This document shows positions 6,148-64,000 of a DNA stretch of 64,000 nucleotides, in pieces (position 1 is the first letter of the stretch; every line of letters begins with the position of its first letter). Source of the DNA: a plasmid; sequence record NZ_CP110908.1; one strand, given 5' to 3'. The notes beneath the pieces are model-generated. The model was not told the origin of the DNA and did not search any database. It was given only the letters and a program-made list of their open reading frames with translations. The translations under genes were made by a program, and so were the position numbers.

Positions 6148-6269
6148 CGTCAGTAAAAATCAGACACCAGTCAGAATTTTCACGCCCTGACCAGGAATGG
6201 TGAGGGGATGGGCATTCCGGTCACAGTCACCGCTGGTGAGCCACATCGCTTTACCTTTGCAACCTGATG

Positions 6270-6296
6270 TCTGCTCAAAACTTGTTTTTGAGCAGA
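6270..6296 (+). terminator. Hairpin downstream of ygbN (tctgctcaaaa-ctt-gtttttgagcaga)
   Basis: Perfect 11-bp stem with an internal T-run about 120 bp after the ygbN stop. Likely an intrinsic or bidirectional terminator. Confidence 0.4.
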
Positions 6297-6345
6297 CGAC
6301 GGGTTGGGCAAGCCCGCCGGGCGCGTCAGGCCGTTATCAAAGGAC

Positions 6346-7442: not shown

Positions 7443-7748
7443 TCAGATCCCCCGGAACATCAGGTTGATGGCGTTCTGGATGTCATTCTCCAGGTGGCTG
7501 AGATCGGCCACTTCTTCCCCGATGACAGTGGCCGGCACACTGGCCATATCCGTGGTCATCAGACGATAAGGGTCACCTCCGACTGACACCACCGGATAAA
7601 GCTCACGCGAGACTTTGTCGGACAGCAGGCGGGCGCTGACCAGCGGGATCACCATCCGGCGTCCCGGGGTGTCAATAATGTCACTCTGCACGTCGACGAA
7701 CAGACGGTAGCGGCTTTCTCTTTTATAGGCGTAAACCTTAAACTGCAT
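7443..7748 (-). CDS. ccdB: CcdB toxin (gyrase poison)
   Basis: The [36 protein letters not shown]... sequence matches F-plasmid CcdB over its full length of 101 aa. Its start overlaps the ccdA stop. Confidence 0.95.
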
Positions 7749-7749
7749 A

Positions 7750-7968
7750 TCACCAGTCCCTGTTTTCGTCAGCAAACGATCCGTTAGCCTCGATAAAGCT
7801 GGCCACCTCAGCCATACCTTCCCGGTTTTCTTCCTGCCAGCGTTCGGCGCGCAGACGGCGGGCTTCGTTCTGCATGGTCGTACTGACCAGACCGGAGATA
7901 TTTACGTCGTATGCCTTGAGCAACTGATAGCTGTCGCTGTCCACTGTCACTGTAATACGCTGCTTCAC
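7750..7968 (-). CDS. ccdA: CcdA antitoxin
   Basis: [45 protein letters not shown]... matches F CcdA (72 aa). A GTG start at 7968 is inferred; the ORF track extends to 8028. Confidence 0.9.
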
Positions 7969-8684
7969 AATGCACCTCTTTTTTACATACTTCAGGTATG
8001 CCATAAAGTATACATTCTGCTGAAGCAAAAATCTGCTCCGCTCTGTGAATACTGTAAACCGGCTTACAGTGACTGAGTTAACTGTACACTGCTGTTATAG
8101 ACATACCTCGCATATGCATTTTGATGCGCATCTTATTGATGCCGGATTTCGCCTCTTAAAACGCATACTGTTAGCCAGCCACTAGTAACCTAATCATATT
8201 TTACACATAGCAACTTTCACCAGATGCAATTACAACTCAACTTATAAAAACACCCCTGAATTACCGGATGGCAGTTTTCTGGTGATCCGATTTCTGGAGT
8301 ATTTAAGACTTTCCGGAAGTGTACCACGGGCAGGGAATAAGCAAAGCGGTCTTTTCCGGCCCTGTGCGACAGGTCAGGAAAAGAGAGAGTAACACAACAT
8401 ATAGTAGATAATCCGTCTTACGGAGTAGTGCATTTTGTGTTTCCGGGCCGAAGATCGCCGGAGTGGTACAGGAAGATCCGGGACTGCCTTTTTTCGGATC
8501 TGAGCGGGAAAAGTGAGAAACCAACATAGGTGTAACATATCCATATGCCGGGCATCTGCATAGGCAAAGCATACGCATATACCTACCATCTGCATATGTA
8601 ACACCTATACAAGCCGGGCTTGCAGGCATATACTTCACCTATGCGGGAATACTCCCTGGCACACTCAGCATATGAGGAAAAACC

Positions 8685-8915
8685 ATGCGCACAGTTTCGA
8701 TATTTAAAAACGGCAATAACCGCGCCATCCGTCTGCCCCGGGACCTGGATTTTGATGGCGTCAGCGAGCTGGAGATCGTCCGGGAAGGGGACAGCATCAT
8801 TCTGCGTCCCGTCCGGCCGACCTGGGGCTCGTTCGCGCAGCTGGACAGGGCCGATCCGGACTTTATGGCGGAGCGGGAAACTGTCTTCAGTGACCAGGGC
8901 CGGGGTGAGCAGTGA
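8685..8915 (+). CDS. vagC: VagC/VapB antitoxin (SpoVT/AbrB-type)
   Basis: 76 aa, MRTVSIFKNGNNRAIRLPRDLDFDGVSELEIVREGDSIILRPV..., highly similar to Salmonella virulence-plasmid VagC. Overlaps vagD by 4 bp. Confidence 0.9.
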   Translation: MRTVSIFKNGNNRAIRLPRDLDFDGVSELEIVREGDSIILRPVRPTWGSFAQLDRADPDFMAERETVFSDQGRGEQ

Positions 8916-9322
8916 ACAGGACATATATGCTCGACACCCGTCTCTGCGCGTACATCATGCGCGAGCAGCCGGAAGCGGTACTGACACGCCTGGAGCAGGC
9001 GGTGCTGCGCGGCGACCGTATCGTGGTCTCTGCCGTCACCTGGGCCGAACTGTCACAGGCGGCACGGGCGTCCGGTCCCGCCACGCAGGCACTGGCCGAC
9101 GCGTTCTGCGCCAGTCTCGATGCCGTGCTGGCCTGGGATCGCGCCGCGGTGGATGCCACCACCGTCATTAAGGCAGCACTGGCCGCAGACGGCACGCCGA
9201 TCGGCCCGAATGACACGGCGATCGCTGGGCATGCCATCGCCGCCGGCGCCGTGCTGGTGACGAACAATGTGAGAGAGTTTGCGCGGGTCCCGGGCCTGGT
9301 GCTGGAAGACTGGGTTAAATAG
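8912..9322 (+). CDS. vagD: VagD/VapC PIN-domain toxin
   Basis: 136 aa with a PIN domain carrying an N-terminal acidic residue (MLDTRLCAYIM) and a C-terminal LVTNNVREF motif. Partner of vagC. Confidence 0.9.
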   Translation: MNRTYMLDTRLCAYIMREQPEAVLTRLEQAVLRGDRIVVSAVTWAELSQAARASGPATQALADAFCASLDAVLAWDRAAVDATTVIKAALAADGTPIGPNDTAIAGHAIAAGAVLVTNNVREFARVPGLVLEDWVK

Positions 9323-9539
9323 TACGGCAGAAACACCGTATTAATGGAGGTCCGCTTTGTGCCAAAAGCAGACTTTAAGTTGTCCAAGAACAGCTCTCAT
9401 ATCTTGGCCTCTTTATGTCGACCACCACTTCAGTGCCTGCAGGATTTAAGGGGACAACGAGCCTGCATGTGGACACAGGTATATCGGTGAGTTAATGTCT
9501 TTAAGGGGTATCATTTGACTGTATCTTGAGGGACTTAGA

Positions 9540-11196
9540 GTGCGGGTTAAATCGATTAAGCTTACCAATTTCAAGAAATTCAAAGATGAACATTTTGAAT
9601 TCAACGATGACGTAAATATCTTTGTAGGTGATAACAACGCCGGTAAAAGTACTATTCTGGAAGCCCTGGAAATCGTACTGAATTACAGCTATCGAGGCCG
9701 CCCCTTCAACAGCGAGTTTACGCCAGACATTTTTAATAAGGATGCAGTGCAGCTTTTTTTGGCTTCTGATAAATCGGCCTCTATTGCCTGTCTTGGCAAT
9801 AGAGGCATTCATTGAGGGGGTGCCTGAATACCGGGGTACAAATAATTTCCTTAAAGCCGATGCTCAAGGGATCACGGTGCTGGTGCGCTTTGATGACACG
9901 CTCAAGGACGTTTACGCCGACCACTTACTGACAAACCCACACATTACGAGTATCCCGATCGAATTCTACAAGCTGGAATGGCTGGATTTCGGATGGAATC
10001 CTGTTAAAGCCGTAGCGAAGAAATTCAGGGCGTTATACATCGACCCAACTCGTATCCACCCCACTCTGGGTAAGAATCAGTACATCTCTACCATACTTAA
10101 TACCGCTTTAAAGAAAGAGGAACTGGTTAAGCTGACCCTCAATTATCGTGAGAATCAGCAGGTTTTTAACAACTCAGGTGAGGTCAGGACAGTCAACACC
10201 GGTCTGGATACGGACCACTTGATCACAGAAAAAAAGCTGTCCATTGCCGCAAGCACTTTACCAGCGGGATCTATTCATACCAGCCTTCAACTTGAAGTAG
10301 ATGATGTCCCTTTCCAGTTCATTGGCAAGGGTGAGCAGAGTAATGTGCAGATCAAGCTCGCGATTCAGAACAAGTCGAAGGATATCGATTTGGTGATGAT
10401 GGAGGAGCCCGAAAATCACCTTTCTCACACTAACCTCAATAAGCTGGTTCACTACATTGAAAATCAGCGGGGCGACAAACAACTCTTCCTTACCACTCAC
10501 AGCTCGTATGTGCTCAACAAGCTGAGCATTGATAAAATCTGCCTGGTTCAGTCGGGATACAAACGTCTGCATAAGCTTGCCCCTGCAGTGGTCAAAACCT
10601 TAAAGCGCTTACCGGGCTATGACACATTGCGCGTGGCACTGTCGCACAAAGTCATCCTTGTCGAGGGACCGTCAGACGAGTTAGTACTCAAGAAGATTTA
10701 CCACCGCAAGCACAACCGCCTGCCCGAGCAGGATGGTATTGATATCATCGTCGTGCGCGGAGTCGGGTTTGATACGTTCATCTCTGTAGGTATGGAAATT
10801 GGTACCCGGATAAACGTCCTCAGAGATAACGATGGCGACTATGAAGAAAACGTCGTGAAAGCGCGTGCCGATTATGCGGCCTATCCCAATATCAAACTTA
10901 TCTCCTCTGCCAAAAATGAGGAGTTTTCGCTTGAACTCGCGATGATATATGCCAATGCAACCGACTTGGTTACGCTGGACGCTTTCGCCAAAGTGGTGTT
11001 ATCGACACAAACGTTTAACCTCTACGATAAAGTAGTCGACTTAGATAAGCGACGCGACTTTCTGATCGACTGGTTTCGAAGCGTCCAGGGAAACGGTAAG
11101 GGCGCTCGCAAGGTCGATTCAGCTATCAAGCTGTTTGATGGCACTCTGAATTTCAGGTATCCACCTTTCCTCGATGAGGTGTTCGACTTTGCCTAA
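9540..11196 (+). pseudogene. gajA: Gabija GajA-like OLD-family ATPase / Toprim nuclease, frameshifted
   Basis: The N-terminal ABC-ATPase Walker A is FVGDNNAGKSTILEAL. The Walker B/D-loop region is IDLVMMEEPENHLS. A C-terminal Toprim domain is present (ILVEGPSDELVL...DIIVVRGVGFDTF). It is followed by an overlapping UvrD-like helicase gene. The reading frame is split between the ORFs at 9540-9815 and 9742-11196 at a run of 7 T (9754-9760). With 6 T the frame is continuous at about 551 aa. Confidence 0.7.
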
Positions 11197-11348
11197 TGAA
11201 TTCTGGATTGCCGGTGCAGGATCAGGAAAAACCCAAAAAGTCATTGAGGATGCCATTGAAGTCATAAAGGCGGGCGGACGCGTATTGGTCGTCACCTACA
11301 CCATGAACAACCAGGCAGAGCTCCGTTCTCGCTTTGTGGAATTGTACG
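11174..11348 (+). pseudogene. gajB: Gabija GajB-like UvrD/PcrA-family helicase, 5' fragment truncated by IS903-like insertion
   Basis: Overlaps the gajA stop. Carries the helicase motif I/Walker A (FWIAGAGSGKTQKV) and motif Ia (VLVVTYT). The ORF runs straight into the IS903-like inverted repeat at 11349. Confidence 0.65.
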
Positions 11349-12404
11349 GGGCTTTGTTGAATAAATCGAACTTTTGCTGAGTTGAAGGATCAGATCACGC
11401 ATCCTCCCGACAACACAGACCATTCCGTGGCAAAGCAAAAGTTCATAATCACCAACTGGTCCACCTACAACAAAGCTCTCATCAACCGTGGCTCCCTCAC
11501 TTTCTGGCTGGATGATGAGGCGATTCAGGCCTGGTATGAGTCGGCAACGCCTTCATCACGAGGAAGGCCCCAGCGCTATTCTGATCTCGCCATCACCACC
11601 GTTCTGGTGATTAAACGCGTATTCCGGCTGACCCAGCGGGCTGCGCAGGGTTTTATTGATCCCATTTTTGCCCTGATGAACGTTCCGTTGCGCTGCCCGG
11701 ATTACACCAGTGTCAGTAAGCGGGCAAAGTCGGTTAATGTCAGTTTCAAAACGTCCACCCGGGGTGAAATCGCACACCTGGTGATTGATTCCACCGGGCT
11801 GAAGGTCTTTGGTGAAGGCGAATGGAAAGTCAGAAAGCACGGCAAAGAGCGCCGTCGTATCTGGCGAAAGTTGCATCTTGCTGTTGACAGCAACACACAT
11901 GAAGTTGTCTGTGCAGACCTGTCGCTGAATAACGTCACGGACTCAGAAGCCTTCCCGGGCCTTATCCGGCAGACTCACAGAAAAATCAGGGCAGCCGCGG
12001 CAGACGGGGCTTACGATACCCGGCTCTGTCACGATGAACTGCGCCGCAAAAAATCAGCGCGCTGATTCCTCCCCGAAAAGGAGCAGGTTACTGGCCCGGT
12101 GAGTACGCAGACCGCAACCGTGCCGTTGCTAATCAGCGGCTGAGCGGAAGCAATGCACGGTGGAAATGGACAACGGAATATAACCGTCGCTCGATAGCGG
12201 AAACGGCAATGTACAGAATGAAGCAGTTGTTGGGAGATTCACTGACGCTGCGTGACTACGATGGTCAGGTAGCGGAAGCTATGGCCATGGTGCGTGCGTT
12301 GAACAGGATGACAAAGGCTGGGATGCCAGAAAGCGTGCGTATTGCCTGAAAATCCAGCCAGCTACAGGGTCGTTCGCACGAAATCTTATTTATTCAACAA
12401 AGCC
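11349..12404 (+). mobile_element. IS903-like insertion sequence (IS5 family, IS903 group), about 1056 bp
   Basis: The terminal inverted repeats GGCTTTGTTGAATAAATCG (11349-11367) and its complement (12386-12404) flank an IS903-type transposase. No 9-bp target duplication is seen (flanks are aattgtacg and catcggcac). Confidence 0.85.
11382..12358 (+). pseudogene. IS903-type DDE transposase, frameshifted in an A-run near 12056
   Basis: The first 227 aa match the IS903 transposase. The frame breaks at ...RRKK|SAR*. The downstream frame continues ISALIPPRKGAGYWPGEYADRNRAVANQR...MPESVRIA to 12358. The A-run has 6 A where an intact IS903 has 7 (recalled from memory). Confidence 0.7.
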
Positions 12405-12579
12405 CATCGGCACCCATCTGGTTTACCTGGTGGCGATCAAAAATATCATCCTGAGCCAAGAGGGACACGGCCTGATTTACTTTAAGCGCAGATTTCATCC
12501 GGTGTTAATTGAACAAGAAATAACCGTTTAATACCCCTTCGCCAGTCGAATTTCGGCTGGCGCTTATTTGTTTTCCACT

Positions 12580-50232: not shown

Positions 50233-50730
50233 TTAGCCGTTTCGACGCGCATAAACGGAGTGGGTGTACGGAATTACAGCTTGAATGGTTTCGGTTGAGA
50301 CAAGCTCGAATTCTGTTTCGTTGAGCATTGGGAAGAAGGCGTCACCCTTGAAGGTTTGATGTACCTCAGATAGAAACACGCCGTGGGCGTGAGGTAGTGC
50401 CAGAGTGTATATCTCAGCTCCGCCCGCGACGTAGAGTTCATTGCCGAGTTCGGATGCCAAAGCGATAGCGTGCGACAGCGTTGAAACAACTACGCAGCCA
50501 GTGGCGCGGTAGTTAGCTTGGCGTGAGATTACCAATGTGTGACGGTTCGGTAGAGGCTTGCCGATAGACTCAAAGGTCTTTCGCCCCATGACAACGACTT
50601 TTCCCTCAGTGAGTCTGCGAAAAATCTTCTGCTCACCCGGAATTTTCCAGGGGATATTAGGACCATTGCCAATAACCCGATTGGCTCCCATCGCAGCAAC
50701 GAGATAAATGCGTACTGATTCCGAGTTCAT
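50233..50730 (-). CDS. dfrA12: Trimethoprim-resistant dihydrofolate reductase DfrA12
   Basis: 165 aa, MNSESVRIYLVAAMGANRVIGNGPNIPWKIPGEQKIFRRLTEGKVVVMGRKTFESIGKPLPNRHTL... Confidence 0.9.
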   Translation of the reverse strand: MNSESVRIYLVAAMGANRVIGNGPNIPWKIPGEQKIFRRLTEGKVVVMGRKTFESIGKPLPNRHTLVISRQANYRATGCVVVSTLSHAIALASELGNELYVAGGAEIYTLALPHAHGVFLSEVHQTFKGDAFFPMLNETEFELVSTETIQAVIPYTHSVYARRNG

Positions 50731-50874
50731 ATGGCTAACTTTGTTTTAGGGCGACTGCCCTGCTGCGTAACATCGTTGCTGCTCCATAACATCAAACATC
50801 GACCCACGGCGTAACGCGCTTGCTGCTTGGATGCCCGAGGCATAGACTGTACAAAAAAACAGTCATAACAAGCC
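50731..50874. promoter_or_regulatory. attI1 recombination site plus the intI1 5' region of the class 1 integron (the Pc cassette promoter lies just inside intI1)
   Basis: Standard integron topology: divergent intI1 and first cassette. Not verified base by base. Confidence 0.5.
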
Positions 50875-58728: not shown

Positions 58729-59994
58729 TCACCGCAGCATAAAGTCATACTGGATGCTCATCTTCACATCCCAGTAATTAAGCCTGTCACCTAGCGAACT
58801 GCCGTCGCGCTTTTCACGGCCCTTATCGGCGGCAAGGAATATATTCATCCCGCTGAGTGGCCCCTCGGCAACCCGATAGTTAACCGCACTGAGCAGCCCC
58901 ATACCTTCAATTTGTACATCTCGCTGACTGGATTCGTAGCCACGGGTGACAACTGGTGCCAGTGTTAAAGTCAGCTGCGGTGTCAGTCGATAGTTGGCCC
59001 CCATCTGCCAGGACTGCATCCCTTCGCGGTTGCGATCGAGGCTGAGTGAGAAGGGATAGCCAATATCTGTATCAACCACCGCACCATTCATCGAATGGCG
59101 GAGATATCCACCGCTAGCGAAAAGACTTCCCCACGGCGCACTCCAGGTCAACTGACCGCTGACCAATGCAGTCTCATTCGGCTGGCTGGACGAGCGGCTC
59201 AACCCATCAAGTCCGGCATAGAAACCCAATAGCTCGCCCTTCAGGGCATATCCCGACGACAACGGAATTGTTTGTTCAATAATGCTCTGCAGCTGGTGAG
59301 AGACATCTCTCTGTACTGAGCCCCCCAGTGAATAACGGCTACGATCATCATGCCAGCTGGCGGTTAAAAATGAGCGAGTTCGATGTTTATCGTATTTTCC
59401 GGTCTTACTGTTATATACACCTTCATCACGAATACCGGTTGCCGAGTCGGTCCATTGAAATACTCTTGTGCGCCACATTGCCCAAAGCTCAAAATTCTCT
59501 GTCGGAGCGAAATAACCTAAAGCGCCTTCGGAAACTGTAGGTAACGTACGCTGTGAACTGCCACCGATAAGGGGGATTCGCCACGGTAAACTCCCGTAAC
59601 TATAATCCGTTCCAAAACGCCCTATTTTCAATCTAACATTGTCACCAGCTTTTATTTTTAGAGCGCCAAGTGCATAGCCAAAACTTTCATGGTCATCTAA
59701 GTACCAGCGCGTACTCATATTATCTCGGGCACCAAGTTTATAAACGTAATAGGCACCACCCTCTACCCCTATAAATTGAGAGTAATAACCACTATTAAAA
59801 TCAACAAGCCCTCCCTGCACCCAGGCATATATATTCTTCCCAGTTCCGGCGCTGGGTTTGTCAGCCCTGCGCAACTCATTTTTTAATCTAAATCTTAATG
59901 CTGCTTCATCGTCAGAGATTTGTTCCGCTAACACAGAGGTACACACCGAGGCCACGGCTATAGCAATAGCCGTTAAACGTGTTATTTTATTCAT
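58729..59994 (-). CDS. uidC: Outer-membrane glucuronide porin UidC-like
   Basis: 421 aa with a signal peptide (MNKITRLTAIAIAVASVCTSVLA). Predicted beta-barrel with a C-terminal aromatic residue. Its position after uidB matches E. coli uidABC. Confidence 0.75.
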   Translation of the reverse strand: MNKITRLTAIAIAVASVCTSVLAEQISDDEAALRFRLKNELRRADKPSAGTGKNIYAWVQGGLVDFNSGYYSQFIGVEGGAYYVYKLGARDNMSTRWYLDDHESFGYALGALKIKAGDNVRLKIGRFGTDYSYGSLPWRIPLIGGSSQRTLPTVSEGALGYFAPTENFELWAMWRTRVFQWTDSATGIRDEGVYNSKTGKYDKHRTRSFLTASWHDDRSRYSLGGSVQRDVSHQLQSIIEQTIPLSSGYALKGELLGFYAGLDGLSRSSSQPNETALVSGQLTWSAPWGSLFASGGYLRHSMNGAVVDTDIGYPFSLSLDRNREGMQSWQMGANYRLTPQLTLTLAPVVTRGYESSQRDVQIEGMGLLSAVNYRVAEGPLSGMNIFLAADKGREKRDGSSLGDRLNYWDVKMSIQYDFMLR

Positions 59995-60042
59995 CGTTTA
60001 ACCTTTGGGTTTGTAATTGTTTTATAATAAAACTACAGGGCC

Positions 60043-63262
<3,220 letters not shown>

Positions 63263-63510
63263 AAAATGTACAAGTTAACCAGTTCATAGACCGCATTGTT
63301 ATCACGGATGAATCACTGCGGAGAATCCACACCACAAAGAACTGAAGAGAATGTCATAAAATTAAAATTTGCAATGTAGCTTATGCGACACCAATCACAC
63401 ATACATAAAACCATCAATTGACATAGATTGAAAAATACCCAACCAAACGTTCATTCTAGTTTTTCCTTGCATATGTTTCTCACTTCGGAAAGGCTACGCA
63501 ACATAAATTA

Positions 63511-63522
63511 TTGGTTGACCAA
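63511..63522. promoter_or_regulatory. Operator-like palindrome TTGGTTGACCAA in the uidR promoter region
   Basis: Second copy of the TTGGT-N2-ACCAA dyad in the divergent uidA-uidR intergenic region. Confidence 0.5.
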
Positions 63523-63600
63523 AAAAAGTTAATTTGCCGGTAGGCGTCAATCTACTCACCGGTTACACTGTTGTTTTCGAAGAAGAATCGAGCAACCTCA

Positions 63601-64000
63601 ATGGGTAAAAAATTATCCGGAATGTCAACGCGTACCAGGATCCTGAATGCCGCAAGAGAGTGCTTTGCAGAAAATGGTTTTCATAACACGTCAATGAAAA
63701 CCATCTGCAAGGCCAGCGACATGAGTCCTGGAACCTTGTATCACCACTTCGTGTCAAAAGAGGCCTTGATTCAGGCCATAATCCTTGAAGATCAGGAAAG
63801 AGCCTTAACCCGCTTTCGTCATCCACTCGAAGGCGTTGGCCTGGTAGATTATCTGGTGGACTCTATGATTGACGTCACACATGAAGATTGCGCTCAACGC
63901 GCGTTAGTTATGGAAATAATGGCGGAGGGGATGCGAAATCCTCAGGTCGCGGACATGCTCAAAAGCAAATACCAAACCATCACAGATTTCCTCGTTGCAC
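63601..64000 (+). CDS. uidR: TetR-family repressor UidR (5' part; the gene runs off the window)
   Basis: MGKKLSGMSTRTRILNAARECFAENGFHNTSMKTICKASDMSPGTLYHHFVSKEALIQAIILEDQERAL... is close to E. coli UidR/GusR. It is divergent from uidA here. Confidence 0.85.
   Translation, partial: MGKKLSGMSTRTRILNAARECFAENGFHNTSMKTICKASDMSPGTLYHHFVSKEALIQAIILEDQERALTRFRHPLEGVGLVDYLVDSMIDVTHEDCAQRALVMEIMAEGMRNPQVADMLKSKYQTITDFLVA

Follow-up and report, generated by a model that had tools for sequence, protein, structure and literature searches.

Gabija is a two-gene antiphage defense system in which GajA, a sequence-specific, nucleotide-sensing DNA-nicking endonuclease (PMC8136825), and GajB, which is needed for defense and hydrolyses (d)ATP and (d)GTP upon sensing DNA ends (bioRxiv 10.1101/2023.05.02.539174), assemble into a 4:4 complex (PMC10822852). 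The active site of GajA is made up of the invariant glutamate and the DxD motif of its Toprim domain (PMC10781630). Here, we describe a Gabija locus in a stretch of 64,000 nucleotides (hereafter, the window) of the plasmid record NZ_CP110908.1, which is a 100% match, in reverse complement orientation, to pCF1807-2 (NZ_CP110892.1), a conjugative IncC/IncFIC plasmid of 211 kb from Citrobacter freundii CF1807. Judging from profile matches and intact relatives, region 9540-11349 is a real Gabija remnant. Both of its genes are disrupted, gajA by a frameshift at 9780-9783 and gajB by a truncation at 11349/11350, next to an insertion sequence (IS) of the IS903 group. The system is a known one, and its fate here is ordinary gene decay and not a novelty.

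In the window, gajA is split into two open reading frames (ORFs; 9540-9815 and 9742-11196). Once the frame is repaired, the product matches the PADLOC GajA model PDLC00102 from position 2 to 531 out of 532 (E value of 5.9e-202, 669.8 bits). Pfam domains AAA_15 (2.9e-20), AAA_21 (3.3e-15), and OLD-like_TOPRIM (PF20469, 2.8e-12) were also detected, the last one at residues 368-431 and over model positions 3-67 of 67. The N-terminal part is an ABC-type ATPase with the Walker A motif GDNNAGKST (residues 30-38), and the C-terminal part is a Toprim domain of the OLD type, with LVEGPSDE (glutamate, residues 374-381) and DNDGD (DxD, residues 430-434). These two motifs, assigned by pattern and Pfam, would be the counterparts of the E/DxD catalytic site reported for GajA. 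Models of other OLD-family proteins cross-match the repaired product (AriA, 2.5e-23; AbiLi, 1.3e-18; Old, 1.1e-17; and also PtuA), with matches limited to the first ~50 residues. Therefore, the likeness to P2 Old, PARIS AriA/AriB, the retron Eco8 effector, AbiL, and Septu PtuA lies in the N-terminal ABC ATPase segment, whereas a full-length GajA match together with a UvrD-type partner gene is specific to Gabija.

The partner gene, of the UvrD/PcrA-like helicase type, overlaps the end of gajA, as is typical of Gabija, and is reduced to a stub of 54 codons when counted from TTG 11189, where the Pantoea annotation starts the gene, or of 59 codons from ATG 11174, close to the 58 or so of the initial annotation. 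The stub retains helicase motif I (AGAGSGKT), and its 59 residues match the short-GajB model PDLC00148 (1.2e-16) and Pfam UvrD-helicase (6.3e-07). They are 98% identical to the intact Pantoea homologue, a protein of 384 aa that covers the full length of PDLC00148 (9.9e-123). The locus thus belongs to the short-GajB subfamily, represented in PADLOC by PDLC00102/PDLC00098 (GajA) and PDLC00148/PDLC00140 (GajB). The initial annotation had quoted the sequence of 9540-12540 correctly, including the run of seven T residues (T7) in gajA, the Walker A motif, and helicase motif I, and its proposal of a Gabija-like operon with both genes disrupted was borne out by these profiles over 9540-11348, since both the OLD/Toprim and the UvrD domains were recovered.

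Intact loci with 96 to 98% nucleotide identity were found in a Pantoea agglomerans plasmid, Proteus columbae, and Rahnella laticis, all with gajA as a single frame of 552 aa. More distant intact loci are present in 50-odd genomes, mostly of Pseudomonas and Stutzerimonas, with a GajA of 549 to 553 aa in nearly all cases and an overlapping helicase ORF of about 380 to 416 aa in most. GajB of the studied Bacillus cereus VD045 system has 494 aa, in contrast to the 384 aa of the type found here. By analogy with the known complex, GajA and GajB of the intact relatives should act as a nucleotide-sensing DNA nuclease with its helicase. The copy in the window differs from them in that both genes are inactivated: with GajB cut to 54 to 59 residues and GajA ending after 91 codons, at a stop at 9813-9815, the system is, as read from its frames, dead.

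The frameshift in gajA had been assigned to the T7 run. However, T7 is the wild-type state: it is present in the intact gajA genes of Pantoea and Proteus and also in gajA fragments of E. coli plasmids in which the ancestral sequence persists at the point where the window differs. We locate the break at 9780-9783 because three lines of evidence place it there. With intact GajA as the query, tblastn follows frame 3 up to nucleotide (nt) 9782 and frame 1 from nt 9784. The GajA profile matches the first ORF through residue 81 (nt 9782) and the second one only from residue 15 (nt 9784). Finally, in the DNA alignment the ancestral ACGCAC, flanked by TCGGCC and TTGCC, has become TCTA within the same flanks, a replacement of six bases by four with a net change of -2. 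It had also been proposed that removing one T (T6) yields a continuous ORF. This is correct as far as continuity goes (551 aa, 4.6e-198 on the GajA model), because the eight codons in between are, by chance, open in the +1 frame. As a reconstruction of the wild type, T6 was rejected: its product carries an eight-residue out-of-frame patch, WLLINRPL instead of LASDKSATH, and scores 657 bits versus 669.8 bits for the true repair, and the intact Pantoea and Proteus genes have T7. The suggestions of a sequencing error or a slipped-strand switch in the T run fall away as well, since the homopolymer is not the lesion.

TAGA at 9800-9803, read as its reverse complement, gives exactly the new TCTA. 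The ancestral allele, GCC-ACGCAC-TTGCC tgtctt GGCAA-TAGA-GGC, is a quasi-palindrome with stems of 3 and 5 bp around a 6 x 4 mismatch, while the window allele forms a perfect inverted repeat with arms of 12 bp, which was detected in this allele only. The predicted single-stranded DNA hairpin has a free energy of -13.5 kcal/mol in the window, versus -4.1 kcal/mol for the ancestral sequence, and a z-score of -6.7 against shuffled sequences. Perfect repeats with arms of at least 12 bp and loops of 3 to 10 nt occur at only three places in the 64-kb window and in 0 of 20 shuffles. The two other places are at 995-1027 and 6269-6297. In quasipalindrome mutation, a polymerase copies the folded-back nascent strand, and this template switch turns an imperfect repeat into a perfect or more perfect one (PMC7202029). 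The change in gajA has the same features, with an imperfect repeat made perfect and new bases that complement the opposite arm, so that the whole of it, substitutions and change of length included, is explicable as one event. It seems likely, from this pattern, that the gajA lesion is the product of such a mutation. The clustered multi-base change, the complementarity to the other arm, and the frameshift are all shared with the E. coli thyA hotspot and the lacZ QP5/QP6 reporters (PMC7202029), with the difference that here we are dealing with a natural allele fixed on a clinical plasmid and not with a reporter revertant.

Among the alternatives, the one that survives best, although we consider it improbable, is that the lesion is an assembly or sequencing artifact and that the real plasmid has an intact gajA, with only gajB lost. 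Some sequencing chemistries are indeed troubled by hairpin-forming regions. However, the replacement of six nucleotides by four took place in nonrepetitive sequence, the bases introduced match the complement of the opposite arm exactly, and elsewhere the region is 99.6 to 99.9% identical to its relatives with almost no indels. This pattern is expected of a biological template switch and not of a typical base-calling error, and an artifact is unlikely because the switch accounts for the clustered change as one event. A still less credible possibility is that the split gajA is still expressed through a +1 ribosomal or transcriptional slip on T7, 20 nt upstream of the -2 lesion, giving a near-full-length GajA with the altered patch of eight residues as a low-level or switchable orphan nuclease. 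There is no +1-frame stop between the T run and the lesion, and the slipped product would be continuous. Against this, T7 is older than the lesion, being the ancestral state, and did not arise with it, and homopolymer runs of seven seldom slip. No stimulatory signal was seen, although no search aimed at one was made. Besides, GajB is absent, and Gabija defense needs it (bioRxiv 10.1101/2023.05.02.539174).

Homology to gajB stops at 11349 (...GAATTGTACGG), after which the intact gene reads CAAACAT and the window reads GGCTTTGTTGAATAAATC, the terminal repeat of IS903; the G at 11349 can be assigned to either side. IS903 is an element of 1057 bp that generates a 9-bp target duplication, adjacent deletions, and cointegrates (PMC12670165). 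The copy in the window resembles the IS903 group (IS903, IS102, and IS602) in its GGCTTTGTTGAATAAATC terminal repeats, its length close to 1057 bp, and an identity of 99% with thousands of annotated IS5-family copies. It departs from the group in three respects, of which the first and the last were already recognized in the initial annotation. Its flanks, ATTGTACGG and CATCGGCAC, differ, so that there is no 9-bp duplication. They come from unrelated genes, gajB and hpaC. Its IS5-family DDE transposase is frameshifted, with A6 at 12048-12053 versus A7 in three intact copies, and is therefore not intact (an intact homologue matches NF033579 with an E value of 5.7e-106). IS903 is found at one place only in pCF1807-2 and in the window.

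The sequence that follows the IS had been taken for the 3' end of gajB, but 12405-12531 is the 3' end of hpaC, a flavin reductase gene annotated as the reductase subunit of 4-hydroxyphenylacetate 3-monooxygenase, and shows 100% identity with the intact genes. To the right of the IS, a stretch of 996 bp is also present, with 98.6 to 99.4% identity, in C. freundii p1C73 and E. coli pCE1537-B, where its first 127 bp form the 3' end of a gene of 170 aa with that annotation. All 42 residues of the tail are identical to the C terminus of the intact HpaC proteins of these plasmids, which match the equivalog-level HpaC model NF012030 (6.4e-110). Neither PADLOC, Pfam, nor tblastn with intact GajB gave any GajB signal at 12405-12531, and the tail was rejected as part of gajB. 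Comparison with the intact loci allowed us to measure the loss: the intact gajB of this subfamily has 1155 bp, of which 993 bp are absent here, together with the cassette tail. The deletion of about 1.3 kb within the helicase gene suggested before is thus not upheld, and the junction, as its homologies indicate, is one at which the IS has unrelated segments on its two sides, the 5' stub of gajB and the 3' stub of hpaC. The original combination of a one-base slip in T7 (by mutation, sequencing error, or phase switch) with a ~1.3-kb IS-associated deletion inside gajB and a gajB tail is to be regarded as refuted, since the continuous T6 frame that speaks for it is outweighed by T7 in the relatives and in the ancestral-sequence E. 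coli fragments, the patch and lower score of the T6 product, the empty tblastn search and HpaC identity after the IS, and the mere 1155 bp of the gene.

As the 9-bp duplication is absent, either an adjacent deletion caused by IS903 or recombination between two copies of this element would have formed the right junction. The two are indistinguishable here because the reciprocal product was not found: the missing 3' part of gajB is not on any Citrobacter plasmid record, and the hpaB'/5' hpaC part is not on pCF1807-2. An IS903 copy also truncates hpaB in p1C73 (L004 2439-3497) and pCE1537-B (L005 2441-3498), about 1.1 kb to the left of the intact hpaC; these copies are in the opposite orientation to that of the window and also lack a 9-bp duplication. 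Evidently, IS903 has rearranged the left edge of the hpa/capsule segment on more than one occasion.

Table 1. Coordinates of the Gabija remnant, the adjoining IS, and neighboring features (window positions unless a comparison locus, L, is named)
Feature	Position	Strand	Remarks
ccdAB toxin-antitoxin module	7443-7968	-	With vapBC, directly upstream of the Gabija remnant
vapBC toxin-antitoxin pair	8685-9322		Directly upstream of the Gabija remnant
24-nt imperfect palindrome GTCCGCTTTGTGCCAAAAGCAGAC	9350-9373	+	Left end of the ~3.04-kb gajAB cassette
gajA pseudogene (class 2 OLD nuclease)	9540-11196	+	Profile, Pfam, and intact homologues; repaired product of 552 aa
T7 run	9754-9760	+	Codons CTT TTT TTG (L F L); wild-type in-frame state
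Perfect inverted repeat GCCTCTATTGCC / GGCAATAGAGGC	9777-9806	+	Arms 9777-9788 and 9795-9806 (12 bp); 6-nt loop
gajB 5' remnant with helicase motif I	11174-11349	+	Overlaps the end of gajA
IS903-group (IS5 family) element	11350-12404	+	1055 bp; terminal inverted repeats 11350-11367 and 12387-12404 (18 bp)
IS903-group transposase reading frame	11382-12349		Frameshifted
hpaC 3' remnant (4-hydroxyphenylacetate 3-monooxygenase reductase subunit)	12405-12531	+	Last 42 codons and stop
Lipoprotein gene, then capsule-type polysaccharide export locus	13016 onward		Right of the Gabija remnant, IS, and hpaC stub
Bounding palindromes in comparison loci	L002 8017-8075; L066 2507-2569; L065 123-146 and 2501-2524		

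The order of these events can be approached through related plasmids. E. coli AB66 plasmid 5 (NZ_OZ547465.1), with an IncR-type backbone, is 99.6% identical over 10507-12396 of the window and has the identical left junction between gajB and IS903. Its IS903 has an intact transposase with A7 and a right inverted repeat cut 8 bp short. The gajA gene of this plasmid is broken by a Tn5403 insertion with a 5-bp duplication (10508-10512 in window coordinates) and for a second time near 9850-9860, adjoining ISEc52, and its 5' gajA fragment, located beside the same vapBC pair, has retained both T7 and ACGCAC, the ancestral state. Similarly, pLAU-OXA3 and related 37-kb plasmids have vapBC and gajA up to 10512 with the ancestral sequence. 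Because the same gajB::IS903 junction is found in a plasmid whose gajA is broken otherwise, gajB was probably lost first, in a shared event, and gajA later, by separate inactivations in the two lineages. Only the Citrobacter plasmid lineage would have acquired the template switch, the A6 run, and the hpaC junction. The vapBC-gajA-gajB'::IS903 fossil, with gajA hit independently by Tn5403 and ISEc52, is carried by the IncR-type E. coli plasmids NZ_OZ547465.1, NZ_CP045280.1, and NZ_LR890610.1.

The best explanation as a whole, which we regard as very probable, is that of a dead Gabija cassette that lost gajB at an IS903 element and later gajA by a template switch. The ancestral state would be a 3.04-kb cassette coding for a GajA of 552 aa and a short GajB of 384 aa, just downstream of vapBC on an enterobacterial plasmid backbone. 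An IS903-group element would have come to lie after codon 54 of gajB, with loss of the remaining gene. Then, only in the Citrobacter plasmid, the nascent gajA strand would have folded on the quasi-palindrome and copied the opposite arm, turning ACGCAC into TCTA and creating the perfect 12-bp hairpin. Further changes would be the loss of the transposase frame (A7 to A6) and the joining of the right end of the IS to the truncated hpaC that leads into the capsule export locus, by one of the two routes mentioned above.

Some points weigh against this explanation. The search of PDB by sequence with GajA retrieved only generic ABC/Rad50 matches to the N-terminal part and not the solved B. cereus GajA, from which the protein found here is too divergent to be recovered in this way. 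The template switch is read from a sequence pattern. The A6 run of the IS, being a homopolymer change, could be a sequencing error. The IS has four private substitutions with respect to three other copies, and this single nucleotide polymorphism pattern neither supports nor excludes a chimeric, recombined element. Lastly, the order in which gajB goes first depends on a single shared junction, which plasmid recombination could have spread apart from the gajA alleles. As for selection, it might be thought that an orphan GajA is costly after the loss of GajB and that the template switch, on the one hand, and the Tn5403 and ISEc52 hits, on the other, are independent adaptive inactivations instead of neutral decay; we consider this unlikely.

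For biology at large, a pseudogenized copy of a well-described defense system on a mosaic resistance plasmid is of little consequence, and the corrected site and mechanism of the lesion, identity of the tail, size of the loss, and order of events amount to better annotation, with no claim of novelty. The locus does provide a clean natural example of quasipalindrome template switching fixed on a clinical plasmid. It also advises caution, since a homopolymer near a frameshift need not be the lesion: the intact relatives moved the break by 20 nt and changed the mechanism. The probable order of decay, with the helicase first and the nuclease later and independently, bears on the tolerance of orphan OLD nucleases.

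The gajAB cassette has well-defined boundaries. The window and the loci of Proteus, Rahnella, and Pantoea become homologous at the same point, 9350 in the window, and in the intact loci the homology runs to about 45 nt past gajB, which delimits a unit of 3.04 kb, without a recombinase, that occurs in four unrelated settings. At its ends lie 24-nt imperfect palindromes that share a stem (GTCCGCT...AGCGGAC) and have two types of loop. Single Pantoea plasmids have the composite motif at as many as 11 places, and about 2000 enterobacterial plasmid records contain it; in every record listed, the matching stretch is free of annotated features. A dedicated recombination or mobility site was set aside given how widespread the repeat is in these records; the palindromes look like a REP/BIME-like intergenic repeat where accessory-gene cassettes have their recombination breakpoints. 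To the left, the stretch spanning vapBC (8677-9860) is ~97% identical to the E. coli IncR copy and the gajA stretch (9354-10512) is 99.6% identical, a drop around vapBC that suggests recombination near the cassette boundary. The RefSeq-derived table goes from the PIN gene to the lipoprotein gene with no protein listed in between and jumps over four locus tags there, which would be four annotated pseudogenes.

The capsule-type polysaccharide locus to the right extends from 13016 to ~31000 and includes a Wza-like exporter, an ABC transporter pair, a Stealth CR1 protein, a 4.2-kb CDP-glycerol glycerophosphotransferase gene, and a GT61 glycosyltransferase. An IS3-family element splits the locus, parts of which are common to p1C73 and pCE1537-B. 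A scan of the window with Rfam found zero matches within the Gabija/IS region. It did find an AAC_AAD_leader/attI match (71.2 bits) at 50707-50785 on the minus strand, which indicates the attI region of a class 1 integron in the resistance part of the window. Finally, at 59730-64000 and extending past the end of the window, a site-specific DNA methyltransferase gene lies beside a gene of the DEAD/DEAH helicase family, in what looks like a type III restriction-modification pair, a further defense module on the plasmid.

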